Source: Patescibacteria group bacterium
GTDB lineage: Bacteria; Patescibacteriota; Minisyncoccia; Phycocordibacterales; UBA9973
Direction of reading: 5' to 3'
DNA: 64,000 bases
Assembly: GCA_038063535.1 (NCBI GenBank)
Contig: JBBTUV010000003.1
Location: 416-64,415, forward strand
This document shows positions 10,148-25,757 of the stretch, piece after piece (position 1 is the first letter of the stretch; every line of letters starts with the position of its first letter). A model generated the notes under the pieces. That model saw only the letters and a program-made list of their open reading frames with translations, was not told where the DNA came from and ran no database searches. Both the position numbers and the translations under genes were made by a program.

Positions 10148-10928
10148 AAAATTCGCGAAAAAATCCAAAAAAGCTCTCGGCCAGAATTTTTTAAAATCGA
10201 GAGATGCACTTTCTAAAATAATTTCGGCCGGCGAGCTCATGAAAGAAGACACAGTGCTCGAAATCGGCCCCGGGAAAGGAATCCTGACCGAGGAATTGCT
10301 TAAATATGCAGGAAAGGTGACCGCAGTTGAAAAAGATCGCGAACTTTTCGCATATCTTTCCGAAAAATTCAGGGGTGAGATAAAAAAAGAGAAATTAATT
10401 TTAGTGAATGATGATATTCTGAATCTGGAAGCCAGTAGCCTAGTGCCTAGTGCCTACAAAATAATTGCAAACATCCCTTACAACATCACCGGCGCGATAC
10501 TGAAAAAATTCCTGACTGAAGAAGATCAGCCGGAGCGCATGGTACTCTTGGTGCAGAAAGAGGTAGCGGAAAGGATCATCGCGCGTGACGAAAAAGAAAG
10601 CATTCTCTCGATCTCTGTGAAATCATACGGCACACCGAATATCGTCGGGAAGGTGTCGGCAAGATACTTTTCCCCAGCTCCGAAAGTGGACAGCGCAATC
10701 ATCGTTATCGGAGACATTTCTCGGCAGTTTTTCAAAGAAAATGGCTTGAAAGAGAAGAAATTTTGGGAAATTGTCAGAAAAGGCTTTGCGCATAAGCGCA
10801 AAAAACTATCGGGCAACTTGAAAAATTCGGTTCCGGCGCTGGTTTTAGCGGAGCTTTCCGACAAAAGAGCGGAGAACTTGAGCCTTGAAGACTGGGCGAG
10901 GCTCGCAAAATGGGATTTAGACAGCTAG
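10140..10928 (+). CDS. rsmA: 16S rRNA (adenine1518/1519-N6)-dimethyltransferase RsmA/KsgA
   Basis: LGQNFL motif, SAM-binding EIGPGKGILT, NIPYNI motif. ATG at 10140 overlaps the uvrD stop by 8 nt. Confidence 0.85.
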   Translation: MNKKFAKKSKKALGQNFLKSRDALSKIISAGELMKEDTVLEIGPGKGILTEELLKYAGKVTAVEKDRELFAYLSEKFRGEIKKEKLILVNDDILNLEASSLVPSAYKIIANIPYNITGAILKKFLTEEDQPERMVLLVQKEVAERIIARDEKESILSISVKSYGTPNIVGKVSARYFSPAPKVDSAIIVIGDISRQFFKENGLKEKKFWEIVRKGFAHKRKKLSGNLKNSVPALVLAELSDKRAENLSLEDWARLAKWDLDS

Positions 10929-10931
10929 CTT

Positions 10932-10940
10932 TGATATAAT
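10932..10940 (+). promoter_or_regulatory. putative extended -10 promoter element (TGaTATAAT) upstream of the T4SS-like cluster
   Basis: TGnTATAAT about 22 nt upstream of the first cluster gene start. AAGAG Shine-Dalgarno-like motif at 10954-10958. Confidence 0.35.
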
Positions 10941-10961
10941 AAATACATAATTAAAGAGTTT

Positions 10962-11876
10962 TTGGTAAAAAACAAAAGGGTCGTCCTCATCGCTTTTGCG
11001 GTACTTTTTCTTGTGCTGCTTCTGTTCTCAAGATCGAGCTCGAAGTGGAGCGCGACGTCCCCGGTTTCGGAGAATGGCCTCGTCTATGGCAGTGAATCGG
11101 TTGGCGCCCTCCTAGCGAAAGACACCGACGGCGACGGAGTGTTCGATTGGGAGGAAGGACTCTGGGGCACGGACCCCTTGAAACCCGATACGGACGGAGA
11201 CGGGGAGTCGGACCAGAACCAAATCGCAAAAATGAAGGCCGAGCGGGTGGCTGGCGCAGAAGCCAGCGGAGAAATATCCTATGCCGAAGAAGGAAGTCTG
11301 ACCCAGACCGACAAATTCGCTCGAGAACTTTTCACCACTGTCGTTGCCTTGAGCCAAGCGGGTGACGTCGATGACGGCACAGTGGCCGACATCACTGCCT
11401 CTCTGGCTACGCAGATTCAGAACCCGGCACAGAGAAAAGTCTTTACCTCGGCGGACTTGAAAATAATAAGCGATAACAGCACGCAATCTTTTATGAATTA
11501 CAGCAACGACACCGACAAGATTTTTGTCGGTAAGTATCCATTTGATGAGAAAGTCGCCGATATTTTGATAAAATTCTCTGAAGGGGAAGGGGAAGGGGAC
11601 GCCGCGGTCCTTGTAGAACTTGATCCAATAATAAAAAATCTTGCTGGTATGGTGACTGGGATGACGACAATAAATATTCCTTCGGAAATTGCTACCTATC
11701 ACTTGGCTGTTACGAATAGTCTGGAGAAAATTTACGAGAATCTGAGCGATATCAGGCTCATAGATAGCGACCCGGTCCTTTCGATAGGCGCGATAAGTAC
11801 ATATTCTGACAATCTTGAAGCTCTAGATACATCGATTGTCGCTGAATTAAAAGCAATTATGGATAAATTCCAATAA
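10962..11876 (+). CDS. secreted/membrane-anchored protein with DxDxDG calcium-binding-type repeats (first gene of T4SS-like cluster)
   Basis: N-terminal hydrophobic anchor (VVLIAFAVLFLVLLLF). Repeats DTDGDGVFD and DTDGDGESD. TTG start with upstream AAGAG. Confidence 0.55.
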   Translation: MVKNKRVVLIAFAVLFLVLLLFSRSSSKWSATSPVSENGLVYGSESVGALLAKDTDGDGVFDWEEGLWGTDPLKPDTDGDGESDQNQIAKMKAERVAGAEASGEISYAEEGSLTQTDKFARELFTTVVALSQAGDVDDGTVADITASLATQIQNPAQRKVFTSADLKIISDNSTQSFMNYSNDTDKIFVGKYPFDEKVADILIKFSEGEGEGDAAVLVELDPIIKNLAGMVTGMTTINIPSEIATYHLAVTNSLEKIYENLSDIRLIDSDPVLSIGAISTYSDNLEALDTSIVAELKAIMDKFQ

Positions 11877-11877
11877 T

Positions 11878-14361
11878 ATGATTTTTAAAAATCAAAAAAT
11901 ACAAAAGTTTCTTGCCGCACTGGTCTTGGTGGCGATTTTGGCAACTCCCATGATGATTCCGAGGAAAGCCGATGCTCTTTTTGGAGTCGGGGATATTTCC
12001 TTCGATCCCGCCGTCTTTTTGAACACCCTAGTGAGCAAAATTCAAGACGTCATTAAGCTAAAAATAAAATTCAAAGAAATTCTCAATGAGATTTTAAACA
12101 AAATTTCAAAGAAGATTGCGATGCGCGCGCTTACCAGGATGACCGAAAGCACGGTGACCTGGATAAACAGCGGCTTCCACGGCAAGCCCTTATTCTTACA
12201 AAACCCGGATACCTTTTTCGGCGACATTACCAAATTTGAAATCAGAAAGCTGGTGGATGTTTACGGCTACAACTCTTCCCGATATCCGTTCGGCAAGCAG
12301 TGGTCACTGGACGTTATCAACGCATACAAGGGCCGACTTCAAAACAACGCCTCATACAGCTTGAGTAATCTAATTCAAGATGAAGTATATTTAAACAGCT
12401 ATCGCTCGAACTTCGCAGTCGGCGGCTGGAATGGATTTCTTCTGCAAACTCAGTACCCGGAAAACAACTATATCGGCTTTACCATGCTTGCGAATGAAGA
12501 GCTGGCTCGCAGGCTCAACACCGACCCTAATGCAAACAACGAGATCGGAAAAGTAAAAACGACTCTGCAGCAAGGCTTAGGCTTCCTTTCCCCGCAGACT
12601 TGCAGTTCGAACCCGGGCCTGACTCGAAACCCATACGCTCCTCCTGATTTTAAATTTAACGAAGAGTATAAACCTCCGGAGGTATTTAGTAGGGAAAGTT
12701 ATATGAAAACGGACGCGAACACAGGCCTTCGCGTTCCCGATGATGCGGCTTACCTAGCAGATGTAGCGGCTAAAAGATTGTATGATAGTGGATACAACTC
12801 AAGAAAAGGAATCTCGCAAATTAACTGGACGAATAACAATACTTGCACGGGCGGATGGGTAAATACTACTCCCGGTTCGGTGGTGGCTGGCAAGATCACC
12901 GAGGCACTTAACGTCCCAGAAAACCAGACCGGTTGGAAGGCGGTGATCGGAGGGAGTCTCGCATCGATCTTTGATTCGCTCTTAAACAAATTCCTCGGTT
13001 CGGGCTTGGACGCCCTGGCAAGCAAGATCAACCCGCCGGCGGAGAAACCCGACAACTGGGACTACCTCGGCAATACTCTAGGAAGTCCGGCTACATATAA
13101 CCCATATAACGACAGCCCATTCGGCGGGCCGGATGAAGTTATAGTGCTTGACGAATTCAAGACAGCAGTAGATCAGGGGATTGCCGCAACTCGGGAAGAG
13201 CTCGCACTTCTCGATAACCCGAATTCAATCCAATACGGCGCGATTCAATACCTCTCCGCCATCTGGCCAAAAGTGCGTCAGCTCGACATTTGCCTGCCGG
13301 GCCCGAACTACAAATGGGAAGAAAGGTTCGATGAAGATATAAGGAACACGAGCATGAACTGGAATAAAAAAGCGAAAGATGATGGGGAAAAATTGCGGGA
13401 GGTCGGAGTAATCATCAAAGAGCTTCAATTTGCCGCCGATTTCTTCAAAGATTGGATTCGCAATCAAATGATAACGTCACTTCCGAGCGCTTTCTTTTTC
13501 CTAGATACGATTAACGAAACCGAAGCGAACGATACCCTCGTCATGGAGATAGTCAACGCAAAGAGACTTAAGGCTAAAGCCCTTCCCGCTCTTATTGCGA
13601 TCCAGGGAGCGCTCAATTCAGAAGAATTCAACGTTCAGCCCGAAGCAGGGACCCCGGCAGAAAAAAGACTTATAGACTTAAAAAAACAGTACAATATCAT
13701 TGCATATTCAATCTCAAACTCCGACACGATCGAGGAGGCTCGCGCGCAACTCAAAAGTTTAATTAATAAACTGTCAGACTTAAACAGTCTCACCGCCCAG
13801 TGTGCGACTGAAAGAAAAAACTCTCCTGACAAATGGAACCTTGTCGCCAATTGGGACGATCCTTATGGAACGAAGAGTTTTAAGGCGAGTGAAAAAGGAA
13901 AAAACATAAGAGTAAACGCTGTCAGAAAATCTGACGGGGTTTACTCAAGCATTATAATGAACTATACAACTAGTGGAACTGAACGGGAGCAGTTCTGTTC
14001 CCTTCCAGTGCTAAACGGGTATACCCATGAGATGTTTGTAAATGCGATGGACCCAAGAGAGGGGGGAACCAATGTCATATACCCTGAAATTCCTCGGGTC
14101 GCTGGCGCGATAAGAACTGAAACGGTGGGCAGTTCCGTGATTCTTTTTAACTGTAACGATATTTTCCGCTCTTACCCGCTCGACTACAAAGGAAACATTC
14201 CGGGCCAGCTGACGATTGACCCACCACCACCAGCCGACCCACTTATCGATAGTACGCCAGACGGCGGAACACCGCCGCCGGGGACACCATGCGACCCGGC
14301 GACTGACCCGAGCTGTGTGCCAGCCGGTTGTGGTGGCACGGGACAGATCGCGTGCACGTAG
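11878..14361 (+). CDS. large secreted protein (827 aa), T4SS-like cluster, Pro/Cys-rich C-terminal tail
   Basis: Signal peptide-like N-terminus. No known domains. C-terminus is PPPPADPLIDSTPDGGTPPPGTPCDPATDPSCVPAGCGGTGQIACT. Start is 2 nt after the previous stop. Confidence 0.6.
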   Translation: MIFKNQKIQKFLAALVLVAILATPMMIPRKADALFGVGDISFDPAVFLNTLVSKIQDVIKLKIKFKEILNEILNKISKKIAMRALTRMTESTVTWINSGFHGKPLFLQNPDTFFGDITKFEIRKLVDVYGYNSSRYPFGKQWSLDVINAYKGRLQNNASYSLSNLIQDEVYLNSYRSNFAVGGWNGFLLQTQYPENNYIGFTMLANEELARRLNTDPNANNEIGKVKTTLQQGLGFLSPQTCSSNPGLTRNPYAPPDFKFNEEYKPPEVFSRESYMKTDANTGLRVPDDAAYLADVAAKRLYDSGYNSRKGISQINWTNNNTCTGGWVNTTPGSVVAGKITEALNVPENQTGWKAVIGGSLASIFDSLLNKFLGSGLDALASKINPPAEKPDNWDYLGNTLGSPATYNPYNDSPFGGPDEVIVLDEFKTAVDQGIAATREELALLDNPNSIQYGAIQYLSAIWPKVRQLDICLPGPNYKWEERFDEDIRNTSMNWNKKAKDDGEKLREVGVIIKELQFAADFFKDWIRNQMITSLPSAFFFLDTINETEANDTLVMEIVNAKRLKAKALPALIAIQGALNSEEFNVQPEAGTPAEKRLIDLKKQYNIIAYSISNSDTIEEARAQLKSLINKLSDLNSLTAQCATERKNSPDKWNLVANWDDPYGTKSFKASEKGKNIRVNAVRKSDGVYSSIIMNYTTSGTEREQFCSLPVLNGYTHEMFVNAMDPREGGTNVIYPEIPRVAGAIRTETVGSSVILFNCNDIFRSYPLDYKGNIPGQLTIDPPPPADPLIDSTPDGGTPPPGTPCDPATDPSCVPAGCGGTGQIACT

Positions 14362-14370
14362 AGTTTTAGA

Positions 14371-16830
14371 TTGAACTTTATGAACTTGAGGAACTTTAAA
14401 AATTTTATAACTCCGCTCCTTCTCTTCTCAATCGCCTTGAGCATGTTCGCTGTGCCAGTAGGAACAAATTTAGAGAAAAATACAGCCCTTGCTGCAGAAT
14501 GTACTGGAGTGGATGGGAATGGGAATCCTGTTCCTGCTGGATGCACTCTTCCTCTTGGCACATGCACTTATACATTCAACGGGGAAACAAAAACAGGGAG
14601 GGTAACTGAACAATATTGTAAAAGTCCGGCTGGGTACAATAATACTTCTTTGGGATACCAGTTCGTGAGTTGGGTAAAATCGGGAAACCAAAACGCTGCT
14701 CCCTTGGCGGATCCGGCAAATGAAGCACTCGCAAACGCAGAAAATCAAAAAAAACCTGGACTGGAAGGTGAGCTTCAAGAATGCGGATTTGGGTTCAAGG
14801 GTTCCATCTTCCCCGGATGTTTTCAGCAGCTTAGTTACATTCTTTTTGTAACGGTCCCGTCTTTTTTGATGGGGGTAACCGCCAATTTTTTTAATTTCAT
14901 GGCGGCGCTGACGCTGACATCTGATTTATACAATAGTGGGTTCATAGCCCAAATCTGGAAAGTTGTGCGTGACTTCGCAAATATATTCTTTATCCTCATT
15001 CTTCTTTATGCCGCCTTTAGTATTATCTTAAATCTTGGGCATGGTGGAGGAAAGAAAATTATAGCGAACGTGATAATCATCGCGCTCCTTGTGAACTTCA
15101 GCCTATTCATGGCAAGGGTTGTCATAGACGCCTCTAACATCGTCGCTCTCATTTTTTACAACCGAGTTGAAGTGCAATGCGCTGATGGGACAGATTCCTG
15201 TTACAAAAGAATCATAAATAAGGATGGCGCAAAAGTACAGGACAAAGACATGGCTGGTGCCCTTGTTTCGCCATACAAAATTACAACTTTTTTTAGTGAT
15301 GACACAATTAAGAATTTAAAGGCTGCTATTAACAAGGACACTACGGGCCAAGTAGAATCGGGTTCTGGGCAGACTCTCGGTAAATTGACCCCGTATTTTA
15401 TTATAGGGATAATGATAGCCTATGGATTGGTAGCCTTCGCGCTGACTTATGCATTTCTAGTCGCAGGTCTCGCATTCCTAGTAAGGATTATCAACCTCAT
15501 CATGCTGATGGTCGTGGCTCCCTTTGCTTTTGTTTCTTTTGCAGTACCAAAATTCAGGAGCATCGATACGATCGGCTTTGATAGCTGGATAAAAAAGCTT
15601 TTCGAGTCAGCTTTTGTCGCTGCAATATTTATCTTTATCCTTTACATAATTTCTCAAGTCCTTAAAGCTGATATATTTGCGACTTATGCCACCGAAAATC
15701 CGGGAGGGGGGTTCTTCCGAGCTCTGCTTCTTGTTTTTATCCCGGCAATTCTCGTCGTCATCATGCTACTCAAAGGCGCGAAGTATGCAAAGAAAGCCTC
15801 TGGCGAATTCACCGGAGCGATCATCGGCGGAGCGAAAATGCTTGGCGGTGCTGCACTTGGTGCTGGACTGGGAGTTGCAGCGCTGGCTGGCACGCAAACT
15901 TTAGGAAGGGCTGGGATGGCTGCCGCGAATAGTGATAAATTGCGAAAAGACGCAATCGAAGGAAAAGGTTTTGCAAAGATCAGGGCAAAAGCACTATTGG
16001 GAGCGGGGAATTTCCTAGGCAAGAGAAGCTACGACGTCCGCCAAGTTGGCTTGGCGAAGACTGCCGCCGGCAAGGCTGGAATTAAGCTCGCAGACAAAGG
16101 ATTGGGGGCGCTTGGGACTAAATCTTTTGAAAAAGGAAGAAGGGGGCAAATAGAGCGTAAAATTGAAAAGAATGAGGAAAAAATCACGCAGACAGTGCTA
16201 CTAACCCGCGCTGCTGCCAATGCGCAAGATAACAGGGCAGCACAAGCGAAGGCTCAAAACATTCGTGCGGCCCAATACGAAACAGATAAAGAAAAAGCCA
16301 GCAAGAGTCCTAGTGGAGCGAAAAACCCGTTTTTCGATGAATCAGAATTCCGAGCGGCTTACGAGAAAGAACACGGAAGCGTCGATAAAGTCGAACCTGT
16401 GAAAACAGCAGCAGATGTGAATAAAGAACGTAGGGAAGCCTTCGCAATTAGTCTGCAAGAAGGCGGGGTCTTGAAACAAATTATGCGGGGAATTGGAAAA
16501 ATGATTCCGGTTGGCGCGGGGACAGTAGCGACAGGAGCGGTGGCCGGTTCAATCGGAGCGGGGGCACTGGCCGGAGGAATGCTAATGGTTGGGGGAGGAG
16601 TTCTAATGGCGATAAAATCGGGAATAGACAAACTTGATAGAACTACGGCAGAAGTAGCGGCGGCGGCAAGAAAAGGTCCAACCGACTTCCAGAAATTAAT
16701 TAAGGAGGTCACAAAAATGAAAGAAGGGGGAGAAAAAGGTACCGAAAAACTAGGGGGAGAAATTAAAAAGGCTGAAGAGGAACACAAAAAAGAACATGAA
16801 GAGGAGGGACATGAGGAAAAGGGGCATTAA
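14371..16830 (+). CDS. VirB6/TrbL-like polytopic membrane protein with long Ala/Gly/Lys-rich C-terminal extension
   Basis: N-terminal signal/TM, Cys-containing extracytoplasmic domain, at least 6 hydrophobic TM segments in the middle, low-complexity charged C-terminus. Architecture typical of VirB6/TcpH/PrgH-type proteins. Confidence 0.55.
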   Translation: MNFMNLRNFKNFITPLLLFSIALSMFAVPVGTNLEKNTALAAECTGVDGNGNPVPAGCTLPLGTCTYTFNGETKTGRVTEQYCKSPAGYNNTSLGYQFVSWVKSGNQNAAPLADPANEALANAENQKKPGLEGELQECGFGFKGSIFPGCFQQLSYILFVTVPSFLMGVTANFFNFMAALTLTSDLYNSGFIAQIWKVVRDFANIFFILILLYAAFSIILNLGHGGGKKIIANVIIIALLVNFSLFMARVVIDASNIVALIFYNRVEVQCADGTDSCYKRIINKDGAKVQDKDMAGALVSPYKITTFFSDDTIKNLKAAINKDTTGQVESGSGQTLGKLTPYFIIGIMIAYGLVAFALTYAFLVAGLAFLVRIINLIMLMVVAPFAFVSFAVPKFRSIDTIGFDSWIKKLFESAFVAAIFIFILYIISQVLKADIFATYATENPGGGFFRALLLVFIPAILVVIMLLKGAKYAKKASGEFTGAIIGGAKMLGGAALGAGLGVAALAGTQTLGRAGMAAANSDKLRKDAIEGKGFAKIRAKALLGAGNFLGKRSYDVRQVGLAKTAAGKAGIKLADKGLGALGTKSFEKGRRGQIERKIEKNEEKITQTVLLTRAAANAQDNRAAQAKAQNIRAAQYETDKEKASKSPSGAKNPFFDESEFRAAYEKEHGSVDKVEPVKTAADVNKERREAFAISLQEGGVLKQIMRGIGKMIPVGAGTVATGAVAGSIGAGALAGGMLMVGGGVLMAIKSGIDKLDRTTAEVAAAARKGPTDFQKLIKEVTKMKEGGEKGTEKLGGEIKKAEEEHKKEHEEEGHEEKGH

Positions 16831-16846
16831 AAATTAAAGTTGATTT

Positions 16847-17404
16847 ATGGACGAAGAAACAATAAAAAAAATAAAGGAAAGATACGACATGTTGCCAGAG
16901 AGCATCAAGGAAATTATCATGTCTTCGAATTATCAAGATACTCTGATTGAGCTTGGCAAAAAATATAACCTCAACGTGGGGCAACTTGGAATTCTCGAGC
17001 GAGAAACTACTATGGTGCTCATGGGACTCACCAATCCCGACAACTTTCAGACAGAGATTATCCGAGAGATGGATGTTGACGCGGAAAGAGGCAGACAGAT
17101 AGTCAAAGAGATTAATGAAGAAATTTTCGCGCGAATTAGAGACCTGCTCAAGTTGATGAACACGCCCCCGGGAGAAGAACCAAAGCTTGATGAGGAAACT
17201 CCTGCGCCGAGCCCGGAGATACTGAAGGCGGCAGGGGTTACCGCAGCTGCGCCGGATCTAAGTAAGCCCGAACTTCCGGCTGGGATGCTCGCGCAAAAAT
17301 TGTCCGGCTCGTTTCAAATTCCATCCGTCACCACTGATCACACGACACCGAATGTAACACCGGAAAAACCAAAGGTCGACCCATATCGAGAACCGCTGGA
17401 GTAG
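16847..17404 (+). CDS. hypothetical soluble protein in T4SS-like cluster
   Basis: ORF with coding-like composition, no TM segments, Pro-rich C-terminal half. Confidence 0.45.
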   Translation: MDEETIKKIKERYDMLPESIKEIIMSSNYQDTLIELGKKYNLNVGQLGILERETTMVLMGLTNPDNFQTEIIREMDVDAERGRQIVKEINEEIFARIRDLLKLMNTPPGEEPKLDEETPAPSPEILKAAGVTAAAPDLSKPELPAGMLAQKLSGSFQIPSVTTDHTTPNVTPEKPKVDPYREPLE

Positions 17405-17406
17405 CA

Positions 17407-17811
17407 ATGCAATTCAAAGTTCCACAATTTTTAGAAATAGAAGACAAAATTTTCGGGCCTTTTACCTTCAAGCAATTCGTCTACCTGGTAGGCGGGGCGG
17501 GAATATGCTTTGTGCTCTACCGAGTGCTTGGCTTTGTTCTCGGCGCAATTCCGATCCTCGCGATCGGCGGCTTCGCCGCCATGCTCGCTTTCTACCGGCC
17601 GAACGGCAAACCATTCCTCTTCATGGTCGAGTCGGGATTTAAATACATATTCCAGAGCAAGCTCTATATTTGGAAAGCGGAGACAGATATGCCGAGAGAG
17701 GCCACAAAGAAAGAAATGCTCCCCGTTGAATCTCTTGAAGCGCGCCTCTCCGGATCTAAGCTTCGCGATTTGGCTTGGTCGCTAGACGTTTTAGATCTGA
17801 AAAAACAATAA
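17407..17811 (+). CDS. small 2-TM membrane protein, VirB3/TcpE/PrgI-like position and topology
   Basis: Two adjacent hydrophobic helices (FVYLVGGAGICFVLYRVLGFVLGAIPILAIGGFAAMLAFY). Lies immediately upstream of VirB4. Confidence 0.45.
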   Translation: MQFKVPQFLEIEDKIFGPFTFKQFVYLVGGAGICFVLYRVLGFVLGAIPILAIGGFAAMLAFYRPNGKPFLFMVESGFKYIFQSKLYIWKAETDMPREATKKEMLPVESLEARLSGSKLRDLAWSLDVLDLKKQ

Positions 17812-17812
17812 C

Positions 17813-18442
17813 ATGGCAATTTCCGCAAGAAGAACTCAAGAATTCGTTCCGATCAAAGAAGTCCGCGACGGCGTGGTCGTGCTTAAAGACGGCTCGCTCC
17901 GGCAGGTCATCCTTGCGACTTCGACGAATCTATTTCTGAAGTCCGCCGACGAGCAGCACGCCATCATTTACCAATTCCAAAGTTTCCTGAATACTCTCGA
18001 TTTCCCCACACAGATCTCGATCCAGTCCCGACGCCTCGATATCCGGCCGTATCTGCTTACGCTCGAGAAAAGGATGGCGGAAGAAGGCGAACCCCTCCTC
18101 AAGCTCCAAACTCGGGAGTACATCGAGTTCATCCGAAATTTCACCGAGCAGGTCGCGATCATGACCAAGACTTTTTTTGTGATCGTGCCATATACAGAAA
18201 TTGCGATCCACACTGATACGGGAGTGCTCGGGAAGCTTCTCGGGAAAAGAAGAGACGCAAGCGCGGTCTCCGTGGCCTTCGAAGAGAAGCGCTCGCAGCT
18301 CGAGGAGCGGGTTTCGGTGGTACAGGAAGGCCTGGCGCGCTGCGGAATCAAGTCGGCTCCTTTGGGCACGGAAGAAGTTGTGGAAGTGTTTTATAAAGTT
18401 TTCAATCCGGGCGAGCTGCAAGGGAAAATTGCTATAAGTTAA
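17813..18442 (+). CDS. VirB4/TraC-family N-terminal domain protein (split VirB4, part 1)
   Basis: Start resembles VirB4/TcpF N-termini (EFVPIKEVRDGVVVLKDGSLRQVILATSTNLFLKSADEQ). Ends with TAA, 15 nt and a second in-frame TAA before the ATPase ORF. Confidence 0.55.
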   Translation: MAISARRTQEFVPIKEVRDGVVVLKDGSLRQVILATSTNLFLKSADEQHAIIYQFQSFLNTLDFPTQISIQSRRLDIRPYLLTLEKRMAEEGEPLLKLQTREYIEFIRNFTEQVAIMTKTFFVIVPYTEIAIHTDTGVLGKLLGKRRDASAVSVAFEEKRSQLEERVSVVQEGLARCGIKSAPLGTEEVVEVFYKVFNPGELQGKIAIS

Positions 18443-18457
18443 AAGTTCATAAAGTAA

Positions 18458-20287
18458 ATGTCAATCTTAGATAAAATTTTAGGGAGAGGAAGAGTGGGGG
18501 AGGGCGGGAGCGCCCACGTGCTTGCTGTCTTGCCCGAGCAGATATATCAGGCGGCGAACCTCGAGCTTGCGGACGTGGTCGCGCCCTCGGCTCTCAAGAT
18601 CGAATCGAAATCCATCAATCTGGGCACCAAGATCGCCCGCACATTCTTCGTGATCTCATACCCGCGCTATCTTTCCGATTCCTGGTTCGCTCCGGTTATT
18701 AACCTCGATAAGATTTTCGATGTTTCCATCTTCGTACACCCGATTGACACCTCCTTGATCCTGCGGCAATTCCAGAAGAAAGTGGCCGAGGTGCAAAGCC
18801 AGATCTCGGTCCGCGAGACGCGCGGCATGGTCCGCGACCCGATGCTTGATACTGCCCACGAAGACCTTGAGTCCCTGCGCGACAACCTGATCCAGGCCCA
18901 GCAGAAGATGTTCGACGTCGGAGTTTACATCACCATCTATGCCGATAACGAAAATGAGCTCTTTAAAATTGAAAATGAAATAAAATCGCTGCTCGAGTCG
19001 AAGCTCATATATCTCAAGCCCGCGCTCTTTCAGCAAGAGGAAGGTTTCAAAAGCGTAATTCCCTTGGGCACAGATCTTCTTGAAATCCACCAGAAGCTTA
19101 ATTCCGAGCCCCTCTCCTCGATCTTCCCGTTCGTCTCTTTCGATCTCACTTCGGACCGGGGAATTCTCTACGGGGTAAACCGGCACAACTCGTCCCTTGT
19201 CATCTTCGATCGGTTTTCGCTCGAAAATTACAACTCGGTCACTTTCGCCAAGGCTGGTTCGGGGAAAAGTTATGCTACAAAACTCGAAATCCTGCGCTCG
19301 CTCATGTTCGATGTGGAAGTGATCGTGATCGACCCGGAGCGCGAATACGAGTATTTGGCCGAGGCGGTTGGCGGGAGGTATTTCAACATCTCTCTTTCGA
19401 GCGAGCACCACATCAACCCCTTCGACCTGCCCATCCCGCGCGAAGATGAAACTGCAGAGGACGTACTTCGCACCAATACCATCAACCTGGTCGGACTCTT
19501 TCGCCTGATGCTCGGGGGGCTTTCTCCCGAAGAAGACTCGATGGTAGACCGCGCCATCACCGAGACTTACGCGATCAAGGATATTACCGCGAATTCAGAT
19601 TTCTCGAACATCGAGCCGCCGCTTCTTTCCGATTTTGAGATGGTGCTTGCCGGCATGGAAGGCGGTGGGTCCTTGATACAACGCCTCTCAAAATATACTA
19701 AGGGCACCTGGGCGACATTTCTGAATCGCCCATCGAACGTGGACATCAACAAGCGCTTCGTCGTCTTTTCAGTACGGGATATGGAGGATGAGCTCAAACC
19801 GGTGGCGATGTATATCGTCATGCACTACATCTGGACCACCATCCGGAAGGCCCTTAAAAAAAGGCTTCTCGTCGTCGACGAAGCTTGGTGGATGATGAAA
19901 TCGGAAGATACTGCGTCATTCCTCTACTCGCTCGCCAAGCGCGGGCGCAAATATTATCTTGGCCTCTCTACCATCACCCAGGATGCAGCTGACTTTTTGA
20001 ACTCCCCGTACGGCCTGCCGATCGTCACGAACTCGTCGCTCCAGCTCTTGCTCAAACAATCAGCGGCGACGATTGATGTTCTTCAGAAAACTTTCAATCT
20101 TACAGACGAAGAGAAAAACCTCCTGCTTGAATCCGACGTGGGAGAAGGGATATTCTTCGCGGGCTTGAAGCATGTGGCAATAAAAGTAATCGCCTCTTAC
20201 ACCGAAGACCAAATCATCACCTCGGACCCCTCCCAGATACTCCAGATCCGCCAGGCGAAGCAGGAGCTCGAAGCCGCCGGCGGATGA
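18458..20287 (+). CDS. VirB4-family conjugal transfer ATPase (split VirB4, part 2)
   Basis: Walker A AKAGSGKSYATK, Walker B VVDEAWWMM, C-terminal LSTITQD motif region. Typical VirB4/CagE. Confidence 0.8.
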   Translation: MSILDKILGRGRVGEGGSAHVLAVLPEQIYQAANLELADVVAPSALKIESKSINLGTKIARTFFVISYPRYLSDSWFAPVINLDKIFDVSIFVHPIDTSLILRQFQKKVAEVQSQISVRETRGMVRDPMLDTAHEDLESLRDNLIQAQQKMFDVGVYITIYADNENELFKIENEIKSLLESKLIYLKPALFQQEEGFKSVIPLGTDLLEIHQKLNSEPLSSIFPFVSFDLTSDRGILYGVNRHNSSLVIFDRFSLENYNSVTFAKAGSGKSYATKLEILRSLMFDVEVIVIDPEREYEYLAEAVGGRYFNISLSSEHHINPFDLPIPREDETAEDVLRTNTINLVGLFRLMLGGLSPEEDSMVDRAITETYAIKDITANSDFSNIEPPLLSDFEMVLAGMEGGGSLIQRLSKYTKGTWATFLNRPSNVDINKRFVVFSVRDMEDELKPVAMYIVMHYIWTTIRKALKKRLLVVDEAWWMMKSEDTASFLYSLAKRGRKYYLGLSTITQDAADFLNSPYGLPIVTNSSLQLLLKQSAATIDVLQKTFNLTDEEKNLLLESDVGEGIFFAGLKHVAIKVIASYTEDQIITSDPSQILQIRQAKQELEAAGG

Positions 20288-20305
20288 AATTGATATAATT
20301 ATTTT

Positions 20306-21268
20306 ATGAAACTGAAATTTACAATCTTCTCCCTCCTTCTTCTACCCCTGGCCGGCTTCGCTCTTTCTCCTTCGGCGATCAACGTAAGCGTCTTTCCGCA
20401 AAGCCCTGCCCCGGGAGAAAATGTGACCATAACTCTCTCTAGCTACGGAGCGAATCTAGATATCGTGAACATAATCTGGCAAGTAAACGGCAAAACCGTC
20501 CTCTCCGGCATTGGTATGAAATCTTACTTGCTCACCGCCGGGGCTGCCGGGGTGGAAGCAAAAGTGGTGGCGCGAGTGATGCTTCCGGAAGGGGAAATAG
20601 ATAAACTTATCTCGATCCGGCCGGGGGCGGTAGTGCTCCTTTGGCAGGCGAACGACTCATATGTGCCACCCTTTTACAAGGGTAAGGCTCTCCCGACCGA
20701 AGGAAGCGAGATAAAAATTGTGGCGGTACCGGAAATCAGGGCGGGCGGTGCAACCCTTGATCCGAAAACTTTAAATTATGTTTGGAAAAAAAATTACGAG
20801 AACTCCTCCGGCGATTCTGGTTATGGAAAAAACTATCTCCTTCATACTAGCGATTACCTGGACCCGGGTGTGAACGTGAGCGTTGTGGCCGGAACGGTAG
20901 ATGGAAAGTATGCTTCAGGGGGAAGTATAAGTGTCGGCGCTTATGAACCGGAGATCGCTTTCTATAAGGTTGACCCCGTGCTCGGCACTCTCTGGGAGCA
21001 TGCACTCCCCGATCCGTACAGACTCGCAAGCGGAGAGACTCTGCTGGCGGCACCTTACTTTATCGCGCCTGCCGATATCCGCCGGCCGGAGCTGGTCTTC
21101 AAGTGGTTCATAAACAACTCAATGTTGCCGGTGCAGATCGTTAGGAAAAACCTGATACCGCTCGCGCCGGCGGCCGGAGCATCGGGCACATCCCGGGTGC
21201 GCCTTGAGATCGAAAACACCGACCAGATCTTTTCCAGCGCCAGTGGTGAGATAAATATAGAATTTTGA
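20306..21268 (+). CDS. secreted hypothetical protein (T4SS-like cluster)
   Basis: Cleavable-looking signal peptide (MKLKFTIFSLLLLPLAGFA), beta-rich composition, no known motif. Confidence 0.5.
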   Translation: MKLKFTIFSLLLLPLAGFALSPSAINVSVFPQSPAPGENVTITLSSYGANLDIVNIIWQVNGKTVLSGIGMKSYLLTAGAAGVEAKVVARVMLPEGEIDKLISIRPGAVVLLWQANDSYVPPFYKGKALPTEGSEIKIVAVPEIRAGGATLDPKTLNYVWKKNYENSSGDSGYGKNYLLHTSDYLDPGVNVSVVAGTVDGKYASGGSISVGAYEPEIAFYKVDPVLGTLWEHALPDPYRLASGETLLAAPYFIAPADIRRPELVFKWFINNSMLPVQIVRKNLIPLAPAAGASGTSRVRLEIENTDQIFSSASGEINIEF

Positions 21269-22611
21269 TGAAGAAACTTTTCGTAACTTTAATACTGGTA
21301 ACATTTCTGAGTCCAATTTTTGTGCAAGCAGAGATCCCAGCGGGTGCGAAGGGAAAACAATGCTCAAGTAGCAACCCAGCAGTTGTTGATAGTTTAGGTC
21401 GCCCATTATCAGGTACATTCGACTGCTCTTCCCCTTATAACTGGGCGGTTGGTCAGAATTGCGACTACACAACTAATGGGGGACGCATTGATAGATTTAT
21501 TTGCGAACTTCCGCCTCCTTCAAGTCCGCAGGCTATTGTCGGAAAAACGTGTTTTGCCGCTCCCTTAACCAAACCAAATCCAGACACCTTCCCCTGCGAC
21601 AACCCGCCGGCGGCCTGGATAGGCAAAACTTGTGTTGTCACAAACGGCGAGCGAGTGCAATTTGCATGTCGTCTCAAAAATCCTCCGGCGCCGCCTCCTG
21701 CCGCTCCGTCGCCTACACCGCCGGCTTCTTACAACCTGCTCGAGGAGCTGCCTTGCGATAGCGCTAACACTCCCGGGTGCGTGGGCGGCAAGCTCACGGA
21801 TATCCAGCTAAGCGGAAACGACGCTCTCGGAAAATATTTGAATACCATAATCCGCTTGGCGATAGGGATTGCGGCGGTGCTTGCGGTGGTGATGATAGTA
21901 ATGGGCGGCATCCAGTACATGACCACCGAGCTTACACACAGCAAAGAAGCCGGCAAGGAGCGCATCCGAAACGCAATCCTGGGTCTCTTGGTTGCTCTTG
22001 GTGCATATTTAATCCTGAATACAATAAATCCAAAACTATTAAGCACAGAACTTGTTATAGATCCAGTATCTATTGATTATGTATATGGTAACAGCGCAGT
22101 GGTTAAATCATCTGGGGTAGCAAGTTGTTCAGTGGCAACGAGCGGGGCATGTGCCCCTTCTAACATGGCTATCTTCGGCGACCAGGCAGACGATGCCTCC
22201 AGAATATGCATGGTAGAAAGTGGGGGAATTGCTAATGCACCAAGTAGAACAGATAGGTGCGGCGATGATAAGGCCTTCTCTTATGGATTATTCCAAATAA
22301 ATCTTATTGCAAATGGTAACTTGGTGCGTGACCAGAGTGGGCGAACTTGCACAGGACTTTTCGAAATGGCTGATGGGAGCCCAATAGTGGGAAGCAAATA
22401 CATAGCAAAAAAATCAGACGGCAGTTTTGATTACTACGACTGCAGAGCAAAGACAAGTGAGATACCAAGGTTGAGCCAATGCGCAGTATCTCTGATGAAC
22501 GCCCAGACAAATATTTCAGTAGCGAAAGCATTATATAATAGAAGCTCGAGACCCTTCGGTGCTTGGTATTACAGCGATCGCAGAGCTTGTGGAGAAGCTC
22601 CATTTCAATAA
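21265..22611 (+). CDS. fusion protein: signal peptide + Cys-rich domain + pilin-like TM hairpin (VirB2/TrbC-like) + C-terminal lytic transglycosylase (SLT/VirB1-like) domain
   Basis: Hydrophobic hairpin LNTIIRLAIGIAAVLAVVMIVMGGIQYM...ILGLLVALGAYLILNTI. SLT catalytic motifs ES (MVESGG) and YGLFQIN. Confidence 0.6.
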   Translation: MMKKLFVTLILVTFLSPIFVQAEIPAGAKGKQCSSSNPAVVDSLGRPLSGTFDCSSPYNWAVGQNCDYTTNGGRIDRFICELPPPSSPQAIVGKTCFAAPLTKPNPDTFPCDNPPAAWIGKTCVVTNGERVQFACRLKNPPAPPPAAPSPTPPASYNLLEELPCDSANTPGCVGGKLTDIQLSGNDALGKYLNTIIRLAIGIAAVLAVVMIVMGGIQYMTTELTHSKEAGKERIRNAILGLLVALGAYLILNTINPKLLSTELVIDPVSIDYVYGNSAVVKSSGVASCSVATSGACAPSNMAIFGDQADDASRICMVESGGIANAPSRTDRCGDDKAFSYGLFQINLIANGNLVRDQSGRTCTGLFEMADGSPIVGSKYIAKKSDGSFDYYDCRAKTSEIPRLSQCAVSLMNAQTNISVAKALYNRSSRPFGAWYYSDRRACGEAPFQ

Positions 22612-22613
22612 TT

Positions 22614-23906
22614 ATGTCTAAAACAAACAAAACATTACTTATCATTCTCATCATCCTCATCGGGTTCGCTGTTTTCTTCTGGTTCACCCGCGAGAAGACG
22701 GAGCCGGGGGGTACACAGCCCACAGAGAGCAATTTCTGGTCACGATTCAACCCCTTTAACGAAAGTGTCGCTCCTTCTACGCCTCCGCCGAGCGAAACTC
22801 CGGGAGAAGTTATTCCCACTCCGCCGGGCGGAAGCCAAGAACTGATCCTGCGAAAAGTCTCGAACATTCCGATCGCGGGCTATGGGGTGTTTCAAAAAGA
22901 AAGATATAAAGAGGAAGTAGTTTTGGATACTTCCACCGAGGCCCCGACTGCGCCTCAAACGGAATTCGTCCCGGCGGTCCGCTATGTCGCACGCGCGGAT
23001 GGCAACATCTGGCAGACTTTCGCCGACAAAATCGAGGAACGGAGATTCACTTCGACCATAATTCCGAAAGTCTATGAAGCGTATTTCGGCGGAGGCGCGG
23101 AAGCGGTGATCATGCGGCATCTCAAAGCTGATGAGAGGACTATCGAAACTTTTACCGCAACTCTTCCGAAAGAAATCCTGGGTGGTGATTCCTCGGAAAG
23201 CGCAATCTCCGGCTCATTTCTGCCGGATAACATCACCGAACTTGCGGTATCCCCCGACGGCACGAAGATTTTCTACCTTTATAATCAAGGAGAGAACGCA
23301 ATTGGCATAATCTCTGGTATTTTAGGAGACAAAAAGACGCAGATTGTCGACTCTCCAGCCACCGAGTGGCTGGCTTCCTGGAAAAACGCAAAAGTGATAG
23401 CGCTCGCCACCAAGCCTTCCGGGCTCGTGTCCGGTTATTTGTACAATTTAAATCCCGATACGAAATCTTTCACCAATGTTCTCTCTGGAATCGCCGGTCT
23501 TACCGCTTTGGGAGATCCGGCTGGAAAAAAATTCCTCTTTGCTGACGGAAATCTTTCGCTCTTCCTCCTCGATGGTACCACTCGTTCCTCGATTGCGCTT
23601 GGAGCAAGAACGCTTCCGGAGAAGTGCACCTGGGACGGAACTGGGGCGTTCCTTTACTGCGCAGTGCCCTCCTTCGTCCCACCGGCCGTTTACCCTGACG
23701 CTTGGTATCGAGGTGAAGTCTCTTTTAACGATAGTATTTGGAAGATAGACGCGGAGACCGGAGTGGGCTCGATAGTACTAGAGCCTGAAAAAGAACCGGG
23801 AGGGGAGAGCGTGGACGCGATAAAGCCCTCGATTGATCAAGGTGAAAACTATCTTTTCTTTGTGAATAAAAAAGATTCTCGTCTCTGGGAAATGAAGCTT
23901 AGATAG
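22614..23906 (+). CDS. membrane-anchored secreted protein with TolB/PD40-like beta-propeller repeats (T4SS-like cluster)
   Basis: ATG at 22614 (MSKTNK) just after the previous stop. N-terminal TM anchor. SPDGTKIFYLYN-type PD40-like repeat. Confidence 0.5.
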   Translation: MSKTNKTLLIILIILIGFAVFFWFTREKTEPGGTQPTESNFWSRFNPFNESVAPSTPPPSETPGEVIPTPPGGSQELILRKVSNIPIAGYGVFQKERYKEEVVLDTSTEAPTAPQTEFVPAVRYVARADGNIWQTFADKIEERRFTSTIIPKVYEAYFGGGAEAVIMRHLKADERTIETFTATLPKEILGGDSSESAISGSFLPDNITELAVSPDGTKIFYLYNQGENAIGIISGILGDKKTQIVDSPATEWLASWKNAKVIALATKPSGLVSGYLYNLNPDTKSFTNVLSGIAGLTALGDPAGKKFLFADGNLSLFLLDGTTRSSIALGARTLPEKCTWDGTGAFLYCAVPSFVPPAVYPDAWYRGEVSFNDSIWKIDAETGVGSIVLEPEKEPGGESVDAIKPSIDQGENYLFFVNKKDSRLWEMKLR

Positions 23907-24378
23907 TCATTCCCGGGTCACCCAAATATTTGATGATCACGCGGCGAGTCGCTCCGGTGCCCTCTGATTCAGTTTTTAGGTCCTTCTCACCGGAGAGAAA
24001 TTCGTGCACGATGCGCCTCTCGAATGCCGGCATGGGGTCGATCTCGATGTTTGATTTGAAATATCTAGCACGCTCCGCCATCATGTGTGCAATAGCGCGC
24101 ACGCTCTCTATCCTTTTCTTCTGGAATCCGCCGATATCCACCAATATCTCTCCGACTTCCGTATCTCCTGATCTTGATTCGGTTATTTTTCTAATTAAGT
24201 GGTTGAGGGCCGAAAGCCCTTCGCCCCCGCGGGCGAGGAAATAGTGTGGCTCGGAAACTTCCACAGAAAACCAGGCACTTTCCCCGGGCTTACCTTCCTC
24301 AATCGAAATATTTTGCGCCGGAAGCGTCACTTTTTCCAGAACCTCGCGTATCAAATTTTGGATTTCCGCTTGTATCAT
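23899..24378 (-). CDS. jag: Jag/KhpB-like R3H domain RNA-binding protein
   Basis: C-terminal R3H motif (RRIVHEFL). Lies downstream of yidC in the conserved origin cluster. Confidence 0.7.
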   Translation of the reverse strand: MIQAEIQNLIREVLEKVTLPAQNISIEEGKPGESAWFSVEVSEPHYFLARGGEGLSALNHLIRKITESRSGDTEVGEILVDIGGFQKKRIESVRAIAHMMAERARYFKSNIEIDPMPAFERRIVHEFLSGEKDLKTESEGTGATRRVIIKYLGDPGMTI

Positions 24379-25097
24379 GTAATAAGTGTATCTTTTTCGG
24401 CTTTTTTATTGAGATATATCTGCTGAAGGGTCGATATGATATTACTCGTTATCCAGTACAATGCAACCGCCCCGGAAATGCTGTAAGCGATAAAGGCAAC
24501 CATGACGGGGAAGAAATATTTCATCTGGAAACGCATGCTTTTTGCGAAGGAGTCGGAGAGCGATCCCGTTTCCTCAAGCGTAGCGGCTGGGCGGGGCATA
24601 AAGTGGGCCTGGAGATACTGCGAAGCCCCCGCGAGAACAGCTAGTGCCAAACTCCGAGCCGCGAGGTTGATCCCCAGAAAGAGCATGTGCGGTACCCCGG
24701 GGCTGGGAACGAAGGAGTAAAGAAGTGCGGGATCGAAGTTTATTCCCTTATAGAAAACCCAGTAAAGCGCGAAGATGATCGGTATCTGGATGATGAGGAG
24801 GAGACACCCTGAAAAGGGGTTGGCTTTATTTTTCTTGTAAAGCTCGAGGGTAAGCCTGGCCTGTTCATCTTTCCCTTTTCCACTTTCCTTTATTTTTCGG
24901 AGTTCCGGCGCAAGTTTGTTCATCTTCGCTTGCCCTTCTATCGAGCGTCGCGAAAGAGGGAAAAGGATGATCTTAACAAGTATGGTGAGGAGAACGATGG
25001 CAGCTCCTACATTATTGCCGGGAATTATGAAAACAAGGAGAGCTAGAATGTTGAGAAGGGGGTGATAGAGCAAAAAATTCCAGACGGAAGAAATCAT
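24375..25097 (-). CDS. yidC: membrane protein insertase YidC (short Gram-positive/CPR type)
   Basis: YidC/Oxa1 core helices (LTILVKIILFPL, PELRKIKE..., GCLLLIIQIPIIFALYW). Confidence 0.85.
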   Translation of the reverse strand: MISSVWNFLLYHPLLNILALLVFIIPGNNVGAAIVLLTILVKIILFPLSRRSIEGQAKMNKLAPELRKIKESGKGKDEQARLTLELYKKNKANPFSGCLLLIIQIPIIFALYWVFYKGINFDPALLYSFVPSPGVPHMLFLGINLAARSLALAVLAGASQYLQAHFMPRPAATLEETGSLSDSFAKSMRFQMKYFFPVMVAFIAYSISGAVALYWITSNIISTLQQIYLNKKAEKDTLIT

Positions 25098-25115: not shown

Positions 25116-25331
25116 CTACTCGAGCGGGTCAAAGCGGTTTTTCTGCCACGGGTGACAGCGTAAAATTCTTCGAAGGGAAAGCCAAGCCCCTTTCCCCGCG
25201 CCGTATTTTTCGATCGCTTGTTTGGAGTATTCCGAACAGCTGGGGTAAAACACGCAGCTCGGGGGAAGAAAGGGAGAGATGCGCCTTTGGTAAAAACTAA
25301 TTGATTTTATGAAGAATGTCTTCAATATCAT
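25116..25331 (-). CDS. yidD: membrane protein insertion efficiency factor YidD
   Basis: YidD signature ([27 protein letters not shown]). 71 aa. Confidence 0.8.
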
Positions 25332-25623
25332 CTAAGAGAGCAGCCTCGCTGCCGGGTCTTTTTTTAAGTACCAGAACACCACGAAGTCCTTGGGGTAGCT
25401 TGTGAAAATGCGGGCCTATTGCCTGGTAACCCAAGCGGCGCAGAGAGTTGCGTTCGGTTGATTTCTTTGCGGTCTCCTTTGGGATAATAAAAGAAAATCT
25501 CGGGGGGTTATTATTGTCTTCAAAGATATACCGGAGGTAAATATCCCGGCCCTGGACTACGCGCCCGAACTTGAACGCTCGAGCTACATCCTTTTTTGAG
25601 TTTCTGTTTCTTTTCGGGAGCAT
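25297..25623 (-). CDS. rnpA: ribonuclease P protein component
   Basis: RnpA-like basic protein ([15 protein letters not shown]). ATG at 25623-25621 overlaps the rpmH stop (TGATG). Confidence 0.75.
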
Positions 25624-25757
25624 CAAACGGAAACCCGGGTTCTCCCCTTTTTTCTTCTCCGAGAGAGTACGCGACGTCCGGTTTTGCTCCGTGACCGAAC
25701 GAGGTAGCCGTGCGCCCTTTTTCGTTTCCTTTTCCTGGGCTGGTAAGTTTGGGACAT
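25623..25757 (-). CDS. rpmH: 50S ribosomal protein L34 (44 aa, absent from ORF track)
   Basis: Hand-translated minus-strand ORF: [44 protein letters not shown]. Canonical L34 sequence and canonical position upstream of rnpA. Confidence 0.85.

Follow-up and report, generated by a model that had tools for sequence, protein, structure and literature searches.

An origin-proximal type IV secretion locus of the Patescibacteria type whose single pilin carries an apparently exchangeable C-terminal enzyme module

The closest described relatives of the ten-gene cluster analyzed here (positions 10962-23906 of a 64,000-nucleotide stretch of contig JBBTUV010000003.1 from a Patescibacteria group bacterium, the whole of which is hereafter called the window) are the chromosomal type IV secretion systems (T4SSs) of Patescibacteria. 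Wang et al. (2023, Cell) described in S. epibionticum a T4SS, SEML1_0006-0019, that adjoins dnaA and lacks a coupling protein and a relaxase, and transposon sequencing showed that epibiotic growth requires its genes, among them those for TrsD, PrgI, VirB6, the pilins and the hydrolases encoded downstream (PMC10633639). Quinonero-Coronel et al. (2025) found VirB4 in 2,417 of 3,035 Patescibacteria genomes, the 2,425 VirB4 proteins forming one Patescibacteria clade nested in the mating-pair-formation class MPF_FATA (PMC12102498). In that survey TrsD was the commonest VirB4 companion, PrgI/VirB3, VirB6 and VirB2-like pilins were also present, VirB1 homologues were tied to VirB4 specifically in Paceibacteria, VirB8 went undetected in most Patescibacteria, and relaxases were found in only 103 of the 3,035 genomes; the locus lay near dnaA, dnaN, KsgA, RnpA and RpmH, with KsgA a frequent neighbor of virB4 (PMC12102498). 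A 2025 FEMS review gives the same picture and speculates on a pilus conduit (PMC12857230), and a 2024 PNAS perspective calls the role of the system "completely unknown" and raises nucleotide uptake (PMC11665869). Finally, a 2026 preprint on a cultivated Microgenomatia strain describes host RNA uptake and tubular connections between parasite and host, suggested to be T4SS pili (bioRxiv 10.64898/2026.06.21.733656).

We estimate at roughly 0.85 the probability that the cluster is a Patescibacteria-type T4SS, in its Paceibacteria/Nomurabacteria version, that acts as a host-contact conduit rather than in conjugation. Its identity as a Patescibacteria-type T4SS is close to certain, and the host-contact function is inferred by analogy with homologous systems. 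Since the split VirB4, PrgI, VirB6, the pilins, the lack of a relaxase and the origin-proximal site have all been published, the locus is a correct rediscovery of a known T4SS, and the novelty implied by an earlier note on this DNA, made from the sequence alone, gives way to descriptions from 2023-2025 (PMC10633639, PMC12102498). The substance of that note agrees with the evidence: a T4SS core of Gram-positive type (MPF_FATA-like) that lacks DNA-processing genes and sits in a candidate phyla radiation (CPR) chromosome is supported by protein families, synteny and literature, and a non-conjugative machine of an episymbiotic CPR bacterium by families, locus conservation and literature (PMC10633639, PMC12102498, PMC12857230).

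The ten open reading frames (ORFs), all on the + strand and numbered g1 to g10 in order, include a VirB4 that is divided between an N-terminal-domain ORF and an ATPase ORF, just as had been proposed. The ATPase, g7 (18458-20287, 609 aa), belongs to the VirB4 CD1110 family (CTn2-type, MPF_FATA), with an above-cutoff match to NF045971 over model positions 183-733 (367.9 bits, the cutoff being 325; E=1e-109). It also matches P-loop_TraG (4e-24) and has intact Walker A (AKAGSGKS, 264-271) and Walker B (LLVVDE, 470-475) motifs. Its best relatives outside the CPR are encoded on Gram-positive plasmids (Bacillota, Actinomycetota) at 28-36% identity, and by sequence g7 appears to be a VirB4 of the MPF_FATA-derived Patescibacteria clade. 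Directly upstream, g6 (17813-18442, 209 aa) is TrsD-like and corresponds to the VirB4 N-terminal domain: it matches N-terminal positions 102-233 of the VirB4 model NF045975 and the TrsD model NF041427 (1.6e-5; 24.8 bits against a cutoff of 200), and it carries a precomputed PF26593 TraC-like match. Together g6 and g7 tile one VirB4. The split is genuine and not a frameshift artefact, because g6 is kept as a separate ORF of constant length (210-221 aa) in 77-79 species; a separate TrsD-like ORF beside virB4 is also a feature of the published Patescibacteria clade.

The PrgI/VirB3 and VirB6-like membrane components that accompany virB4 in that clade adjoin it here as well. The two-helix membrane protein g5 (17407-17811, 134 aa), previously described as VirB3/TcpE-like, is a PrgI/VirB3-type protein by an above-cutoff Pfam match to PF12666 (PrgI, E=4e-9), with a weaker match to TcpE (8.6e-4). 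The VirB6-like polytopic protein g3 (14371-16830; 819 aa, or 795 aa from the ATG at 14443) ends in a tail of about 300 residues rich in Ala, Gly, Lys and Glu. Pfam gave no family for g3 or for its 114 homologues, and searches of Pfam and NCBIfam with its transmembrane (TM) core alone, 29 orthologues and distant homologues gave only one TrbL_4 match (0.0014). A PDB profile search returned only noise. Comparison of the g3 family with the membrane protein at the VirB6 position of a CD1110-type plasmid from C. perfringens gave an hhalign probability of 1.6%, with the 25 aligned columns coinciding with an invariant R...P motif. When the predicted fold was compared with known structures, de novo designed helical proteins took ranks 1, 3 and 4, and a natural DUF1311 protein took rank 5. 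The fold model argues well, though not conclusively, for a VirB6 fold, so the earlier VirB6 call stands on predicted fold and finds no backing from sequence profiles.

All ORFs of the 64-kb window from about 150 aa upward were scanned for protein families, and no relaxase, VirD4/TcpA coupling protein, integrase or transposase was identified. The earlier note had listed VirD4, relaxase and integrase as missing and had asked whether VirD4 or a relaxase lay in the flanks; neither is present within the 64 kb. The conjugative MPF_FATA systems are defined by both a relaxase and a VirD4/TcpA coupling protein, and the published Patescibacteria clade by a locus without them at a chromosomal site near dnaA, dnaN, ksgA and rnpA, which is the arrangement found here. 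Residence on a mobile element is likewise not indicated, given a fixed site in 77 of 80 species, a composition like that of the flanks and no integrase in the 64 kb.

A scan of one genome per species yielded more than 560 loci with relatives of g7, of which the best 80 by VirB4 similarity (L001-L080) were taken for comparison. All 80 come from Patescibacteria metagenome-assembled genomes with 74-88% identity to g7, labeled Paceibacterota, Nomurabacteria or Parcubacteria, and some mislabeled Saccharibacteria. When all ten proteins and the flanking genes were searched against these loci by tblastn, gene order was identical in 77 of 80, and the rsmA and jag-yidC-dnaA neighbors recurred wherever the contig of the relative extended that far, which supplies the synteny comparison that the earlier note had called for. 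Median identity to the window protein was 79% for VirB4 (g7), a value somewhat inflated because the loci were chosen by VirB4 similarity, 65% for DnaA, 58% for the TrsD-like g6, 55% for DnaN and YidC, 51% for PrgI (g5, found in 76 of 80 loci), 46% for g9, 39% for g10, 34% for g8 and 27-30% for g1-g4. Across these species the identities span 74-88% for VirB4 and 53-84% for DnaA. The cluster behaves as part of the core genome under strong constraint and not as a mobile or a decaying element.

One component that appears to depart from published descriptions is g9 (21268-22611, 447 aa), which joins a VirB2-type pilin hairpin to a lysozyme-fold domain. From its N-terminus it comprises a signal peptide, a Cys-rich domain, a YxLLxxLP motif, the pilin hairpin at about 185-255 (T4SS_pilin PF18895, 2.9e-9, at 185-253) and, at about 285-447, a C-terminal domain with E317-S318 and GLFQIN (340-345), corresponding to the catalytic Glu at a helix end (E-S motif) and the GLxQ motif of the lysozyme fold, which places it in the lysozyme-like/lytic transglycosylase superfamily. 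A phmmer search of this domain against the PDB gave no match. In the pilin/SLT transglycosylase fusion proposed earlier, the pilin is confirmed by PF18895 and the SLT part by structure only. The usual VirB2 topology has a cleaved signal peptide, both termini outside and a basic loop inside, and because it puts both termini outside, the g9 enzyme would be extracytoplasmic. A VirB2-type pilin gene near virB4 in a monoderm is a further trait of the Patescibacteria clade. The NCBI record gives g9 as a 318-aa "pilin" (P0001) that lacks the signal peptide and the Cys-rich domain; this is probably a start-codon mis-call, the 447-aa start being backed by the ENA call and by orthologue alignment. No other ORF in the window has a pilin domain, and one such ORF is present in 69 of the 72 related loci having any, the other three having two paralogues. 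Paired pilin fusions with different C-terminal modules were observed at L003 (12862-14616 and 15982-17868) and L053 (13870-15303 and 15334-16143), and the pair at L055 (12735-14198 and 14197-15645) combines an NNPGNIGN-type module with NlpC/P60.

Alignment of the g9-position genes from 28 species showed that the pilin core alone is conserved (a YxLLAPLP motif, two hydrophobic helices and an LNTINPxLL end), with flanking regions that are unrelated between species; the N-terminal Ig-like or Cys-rich domains also vary. Among 66 proteins from this position, Pfam scans detected T4SS_pilin in 54, NlpC/P60 in 10, VanY in seven, YkuD in four, SLT_2 in two, and SLT and Peptidase_M15_4 in one each, and database homologues show the same architectures. 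Clustering of the C-terminal regions gave NlpC/P60 in 11 species, a LAS-metallopeptidase-like group without a Pfam model in 10, VanY or M15 in eight, YkuD in four, a lysozyme-like group in three (the window, L016 and L025), SLT in three, an "NNPGNIGN" domain in three, SLT_2 in two, and coiled-coil or other tails in about 15, mostly of a deeper VirB4 clade. The LAS-like group (about 160 aa; L010, L018, L019, L020, L026, L030, L051, L070, L072 and L075) carries the motifs CTSTRGLN...ITGGTExWLH...HxxxSxxVD...HWH and, by appearance, resembles zinc peptidases of the LAS type. A second C-terminal family without a Pfam model, from L033, L035 and L055, is centered on YRTNNPGNIGN.

These module classes are interleaved on a VirB4 similarity tree, and different classes occur in close relatives, for example YkuD in L004 and NlpC/P60 in L011 (VirB4 94.5% identical), the LAS-like module in L018 and NlpC/P60 in L031 (93.5%), and VanY in L042 and SLT in L036 (92%). 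In such pairs identity per 30 residues is 73-90% in the pilin core and drops to background directly past the hairpin ("LNTINPxLL"), and the downstream g10 is 57-64% identical. This pattern in the alignments suggests that recombination exchanges the C-terminal module at one fixed point directly behind the hairpin, even among species with 92-94% VirB4 identity. That g10 confers immunity to the g9 enzyme was considered and rejected, as g10 does not co-vary with enzyme class. Neither a pilin-hydrolase fusion nor module swapping on a pilin turned up in the open-access literature that was searched, and to our knowledge pilin and hydrolase are separate proteins in the known T4SSs (the hydrolases PrgK, TcpG and TraG_pIP501; the pilins VirB2/TrbC). 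The pilin-enzyme modularity therefore appears to be an unreported addition to published T4SS work.

The remaining genes encode accessory proteins. Families that the earlier note could not recognize for the 827-, 185- and 320-aa proteins and the last gene product remain without a Pfam or NCBIfam match (g2, g4, g8 and g10, as well as g3), and PDB profile searches with g1, g2, g4 and g8 returned nothing usable. Of the five proteins it had classed as secreted or membrane-bound, g1, g2, g8 and g10 are anchored or exported, and g4 is predicted to be cytoplasmic. Specifically, g4 (16847-17404, 185 aa), in which no signal peptide, TM helix or hydrophobic segment is predicted and which is excluded from the secreted set for lack of a hydrophobic segment, has a helical N-terminal domain, a Pro-rich linker and a C-terminal DPYRE motif that is conserved in the alignment; in 50 of 80 loci it separates g3 from g5. 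The 304-aa g1 (10962-11876) consists of an N-terminal TM anchor or signal (7-25), two Ca-binding TSP3-type repeats and a helical domain. The DTDGDG repeats that had been noted in it are at 54-59 and 76-81, the matches to TSP3_bac (7e-4) and CglD (3e-5) are sub-threshold, and a PDB profile search matched it only to a biofilm surface protein's repeat region (7c7r, E=0.0016). It was recognized in 37 of 80 loci and comes first in order in every one.

Behind a hydrophobic anchor, g2 (11878-14361, 827 aa) has a conserved N-terminal extracellular domain of about 380 aa with invariant W95, G102, W184, C242 and C323 and a variable coiled-coil, Pro/Cys-rich tail. It was recognized in 35 of the 43 loci with enough upstream DNA, and in the remaining eight a co-directional ORF of 650-1170 aa occupies its place. 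The exported g8 (20306-21268, 320 aa), with a signal-like N-terminus, contains three tandem homologous beta-rich repeats of about 100 aa (repeat-against-repeat hhalign probabilities 96%, E 2e-9; 92%; and 68%) and directly follows virB4 in 75 of 80 loci. Its family has at least 855 homologues, all of about 305-340 aa, named "hypothetical protein" and without a Pfam domain. By hhalign g8 has no similarity to the protein that follows the hydrolase in the C. perfringens CD1110-type plasmid; it recalls the exported Ig-like proteins that follow the T4SS in Saccharibacteria. Last in order in 65 of 80 loci, g10 (22614-23906) has a TM anchor (8-26), a Pro-rich linker and a possible TolB-like beta-propeller with two conserved Cys. 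The TolB-like assignment is weakly indicated by its PDB profile matches, all weak (TolB 7mx5, E=0.016; other TolB, 0.33), and by PD40 matches in two orthologues (0.0038). Pfam matches among g2 and g10 orthologues were scattered (PG_binding_1 three times, PD40 twice, and discoidin, Ig-like and DUF4141 once), with no common family.

The ten ORFs were found at the coordinates given earlier, except that the last gene, reported as 431 aa, encodes 430 aa from its ATG at 22614. Their tight, co-directional packing, with spacing from a one-base overlap (g8 stop and g9 ATG) to 18 nt, is borne out by the ORF list and by a separate gene call on a metagenome contig from Hainich groundwater with an identical VirB4, which gave the identical ten genes and flanks (304, 827, 795, 185, 134, 209, 609, 320, 447 and 430 aa for g1 to g10). 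Family matches likewise place the cluster, as described before, between rsmA and an origin-proximal jag. UvrD and the housekeeping gene rsmA/ksgA (10131-10928, +; PF00398, 6.9e-55) precede it, the latter forming the upstream boundary, and downstream are jag (23899-24378, -), which is convergent with the cluster and bounds it, yidC (24375-25097, -), rnpA (25297-25626, -), dnaA (25856-27202, +) and DnaN. The host-like composition noted before also holds, the cluster GC content of 0.455-0.52 being the same as in the flanks and inside the range of the window. A promoter and terminator scan was not above chance (24 against 18.6 and 31 against 24.2 expected from shuffled sequence), so the limits of the transcription unit are not definable; uvrD-rsmA may be co-transcribed with the cluster.

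Elsewhere the window encodes housekeeping proteins (UvrABCD, RuvABC, PolA, PBP1a and a TyrS/TrpS-type synthetase), pilus proteins and large, probable surface proteins. The type IV pilus genes are those for a PilB-type ATPase (35447-37144, -), PilM (56281-57369, +) and a weakly matching PilN (57323-57919, +); the type IV pilus is a second envelope machine that is essential in Saccharibacteria. Three large ORFs of 1262, 1148 and 569 aa (3909-7697, -; 50892-54338, -; 59577-61286, +) have no or marginal Pfam matches, with DUF11 and fn3-like PhoD_N/Pur_ac_phosph_N matches in the 1148-aa ORF, and probably encode CPR surface proteins.

By analogy with homologous systems, the machine would assemble at the cytoplasmic membrane, where g5 would dock the g6/g7 ATPase onto the g3 channel platform and the ATPase would extract or position g9 pilin subunits. 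The g9 enzyme domain could then open peptidoglycan so that a short pilus or stalk crosses the cell wall, with the anchored or exported g1, g2, g8 and g10 forming the wall-spanning or surface part and g4 acting as a cytoplasmic accessory. The resulting machine would mediate contact-dependent exchange with a host cell, either importing host material or exporting effectors. The high conservation of the cluster is indirectly consistent with a requirement for host-associated growth. Several points weigh against this host-contact reading. Essentiality for host-associated growth is known from S. epibionticum only (PMC10633639). Sequence searches of g1, g2, g4, g8 and g10 did not find a VirB8-like (NTF2) component. 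A pilin with domains at both termini may be unable to polymerize, and g9 may be merely a membrane-anchored VirB1 equivalent. Finally, the rest of the genome might encode a type IV coupling protein (T4CP) or a relaxase, the analysis having covered 64 kb of a contig of roughly 292-346 kb, and VirD4 homologues are common in Patescibacteria genomes at sites away from virB4 (PMC12102498).

This last point bears on whether the cluster is a mating-pair-formation module whose relaxase, coupling protein and oriT are located elsewhere in the chromosome and which delivers DNA to other Patescibacteria or to hosts. Such a role would suit a VirB4 family otherwise drawn from Gram-positive conjugative elements, a core order of PrgI, VirB4 and hydrolase like that of CTn2-type plasmids, and the VirD4 homologues that most Patescibacteria genomes encode, as a rule at a distance from virB4 (PMC12102498). 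We nevertheless regard it as very improbable, because no relaxase, T4CP or integrase is found within 64 kb, the fixed origin-proximal site in 77 of 80 species and a conservation above that of DnaA are unlike those of mobile elements, relaxases are as rare across the phylum as noted above (PMC12102498), and in S. epibionticum the distant t4cp is non-essential and the T4SS essential. That the cluster is not a conjugation machine is well supported by the absence across 64 kb together with the published phylum-wide data. The missing relaxase and T4CP and the two-ORF VirB4 might instead mark what is left of an integrated conjugative element in decay, stripped of its DNA-processing genes and now without function, an explanation to which we give next to no weight, since ten of ten ORFs are intact, the split is kept at constant lengths in 77-79 species, VirB4 is 74-88% identical where DnaA is 53-84% identical, synteny is conserved and the Saccharibacterial counterpart is essential. 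A somewhat better, if still unlikely, candidate is a ComB-like machine for uptake of DNA or other nucleic acids, a source of nucleotides for a bacterium that cannot synthesize its own. Like H. pylori ComB, the locus has no relaxase or coupling protein; reviews raise nucleotide acquisition by the T4SS (PMC11665869); host RNA uptake and the tubular connections suggested to be T4SS pili were described in the Microgenomatia strain (bioRxiv 10.64898/2026.06.21.733656); and the ABY1 locus sits with comF, recG and radA (PMC12102498). However, transformation of S. epibionticum needs comEC and the type IV pilus, and deletion of comEC, which is dispensable, leaves viability unaffected, whereas the T4SS is essential (PMC12857230). 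In addition, no DNA- or RNA-binding or nuclease component was recognized in the ten genes with Pfam and NCBIfam, and transport direction is not readable from sequence. Uptake is in any case a sub-case of the host-contact conduit, namely import, and does not contradict it.

Within the host-contact conduit, the target of the g9 enzyme can be read in two ways. Since no other hydrolase is present in the cluster, g9 fills the hydrolase slot, and it could be a self-directed VirB1 equivalent that opens the wall of its own cell, the diversity of classes reflecting neutral non-orthologous replacement and not host adaptation. To this reading we give a little under an even chance. Gram-positive T4SSs always have a membrane-anchored multi-domain hydrolase after VirB4 (NlpC/P60 in L083, SLT in L084), and there is no co-varying immunity gene, g10 being 57-64% identical whatever the enzyme class. 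A self-directed role is also possible because the genome encodes its own peptidoglycan machinery and remodeling enzymes (LysM-M23, 2602-3633, -; PBP1a, 28379-30922, -; PG_binding_1, 40792-41313, -; PdaC/DUF3298, 43537-44280, +). Yet the class changes at 92-94% VirB4 identity, with a sharp break, which is faster than expected of a housekeeping assembly factor; YkuD is a transpeptidase and not a lytic enzyme; a whole clade bears a coiled-coil tail in place of an enzyme; and at some loci two pilin paralogues carry differing modules. More tentatively, the filament or stalk of the T4SS may serve as an enzymatic drill against the host wall, in which case enzyme class would track host wall chemistry and be a determinant of host range. 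It is similarly doubtful, though conceivable, that such a host-directed drill acts like a polymorphic effector without an immunity gene.

The Patescibacteria T4SS belongs to a small number of machines whose essential role in epibiotic life has been demonstrated in these very abundant, mostly uncultivated bacteria. The window adds no new kind of system to it, and its concrete handle is the sole pilin of a Paceibacteria locus bearing a rapidly exchanged wall enzyme; this modularity is the part most worth following up. If the enzyme does act on the host wall, module class could predict host type from metagenomes alone and would explain how an ultrasmall monoderm breaches the envelope of another cell. 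The conserved, completely unannotated families of g2, g8 and g10 might supply the wall-spanning parts that are still missing from monoderm T4SSs.

Compared with named systems, the cluster is most similar to the S. epibionticum T4SS, with which it shares a chromosomal, origin-proximal location, a locus without relaxase or T4CP, the KsgA, DnaA, DnaN and RnpA neighbors, VirB2-type pilins in a monoderm, and the order of a VirB6-like protein, an intervening gene, PrgI, a TrsD-like protein, VirB4, wall hydrolase(s) and Ig-like exported proteins. Saccharimonadia differ in having six small (about 130 aa), divergent pilins, separate large lysozyme and peptidase genes (SEML1_0006/0007) and an NTF2-like protein (SEML1_0012). 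In contrast, the window locus has one large pilin that itself bears the hydrolase, the lineage-specific g1, g2, g8 and g10, and no recognizable NTF2 protein.

The earlier note had likened the set to the Tcp/Prg mating channel. The T4SS core in that comparison is upheld, but the closest type is different: CTn2/CD1110 gives the highest-scoring model and has a matching gene order. Plasmids of this type (C. perfringens pSXP-169_2 and Brevibacillus NZ_CP144923) have in common with the window a membrane protein, PrgI, VirB4 and a large hydrolase, which in the plasmids is NlpC/P60 or SLT. Directly upstream of this core they encode MobC, a relaxase, DUF3801 and VirD4 (CD1115), of which the relaxase and VirD4 have no counterpart in the window; their VirB4 is unsplit (783-804 aa, 28-36% identical to g7), they have no VirB2-type pilin, and their 264-aa membrane protein has no significant similarity to g3 (hhalign 1.6%). 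The Trs/Tra systems of pGO1, pSK41 and pIP501 share a separate small homologue of the VirB4 N-terminus (TrsD/TraD) beside the ATPase, but these are conjugative plasmids with relaxase and T4CP, and g6 scores 24.8 bits against the 200 that NF041427 demands. H. pylori ComB is a non-conjugative T4SS without relaxase or coupling protein and a precedent for import, but it is a diderm MPF_T system with VirB7-10 and has no sequence relationship to the cluster beyond the VirB4 superfamily. The window cluster is a CTn2-type core minus its DNA-processing half, plus a pilin.

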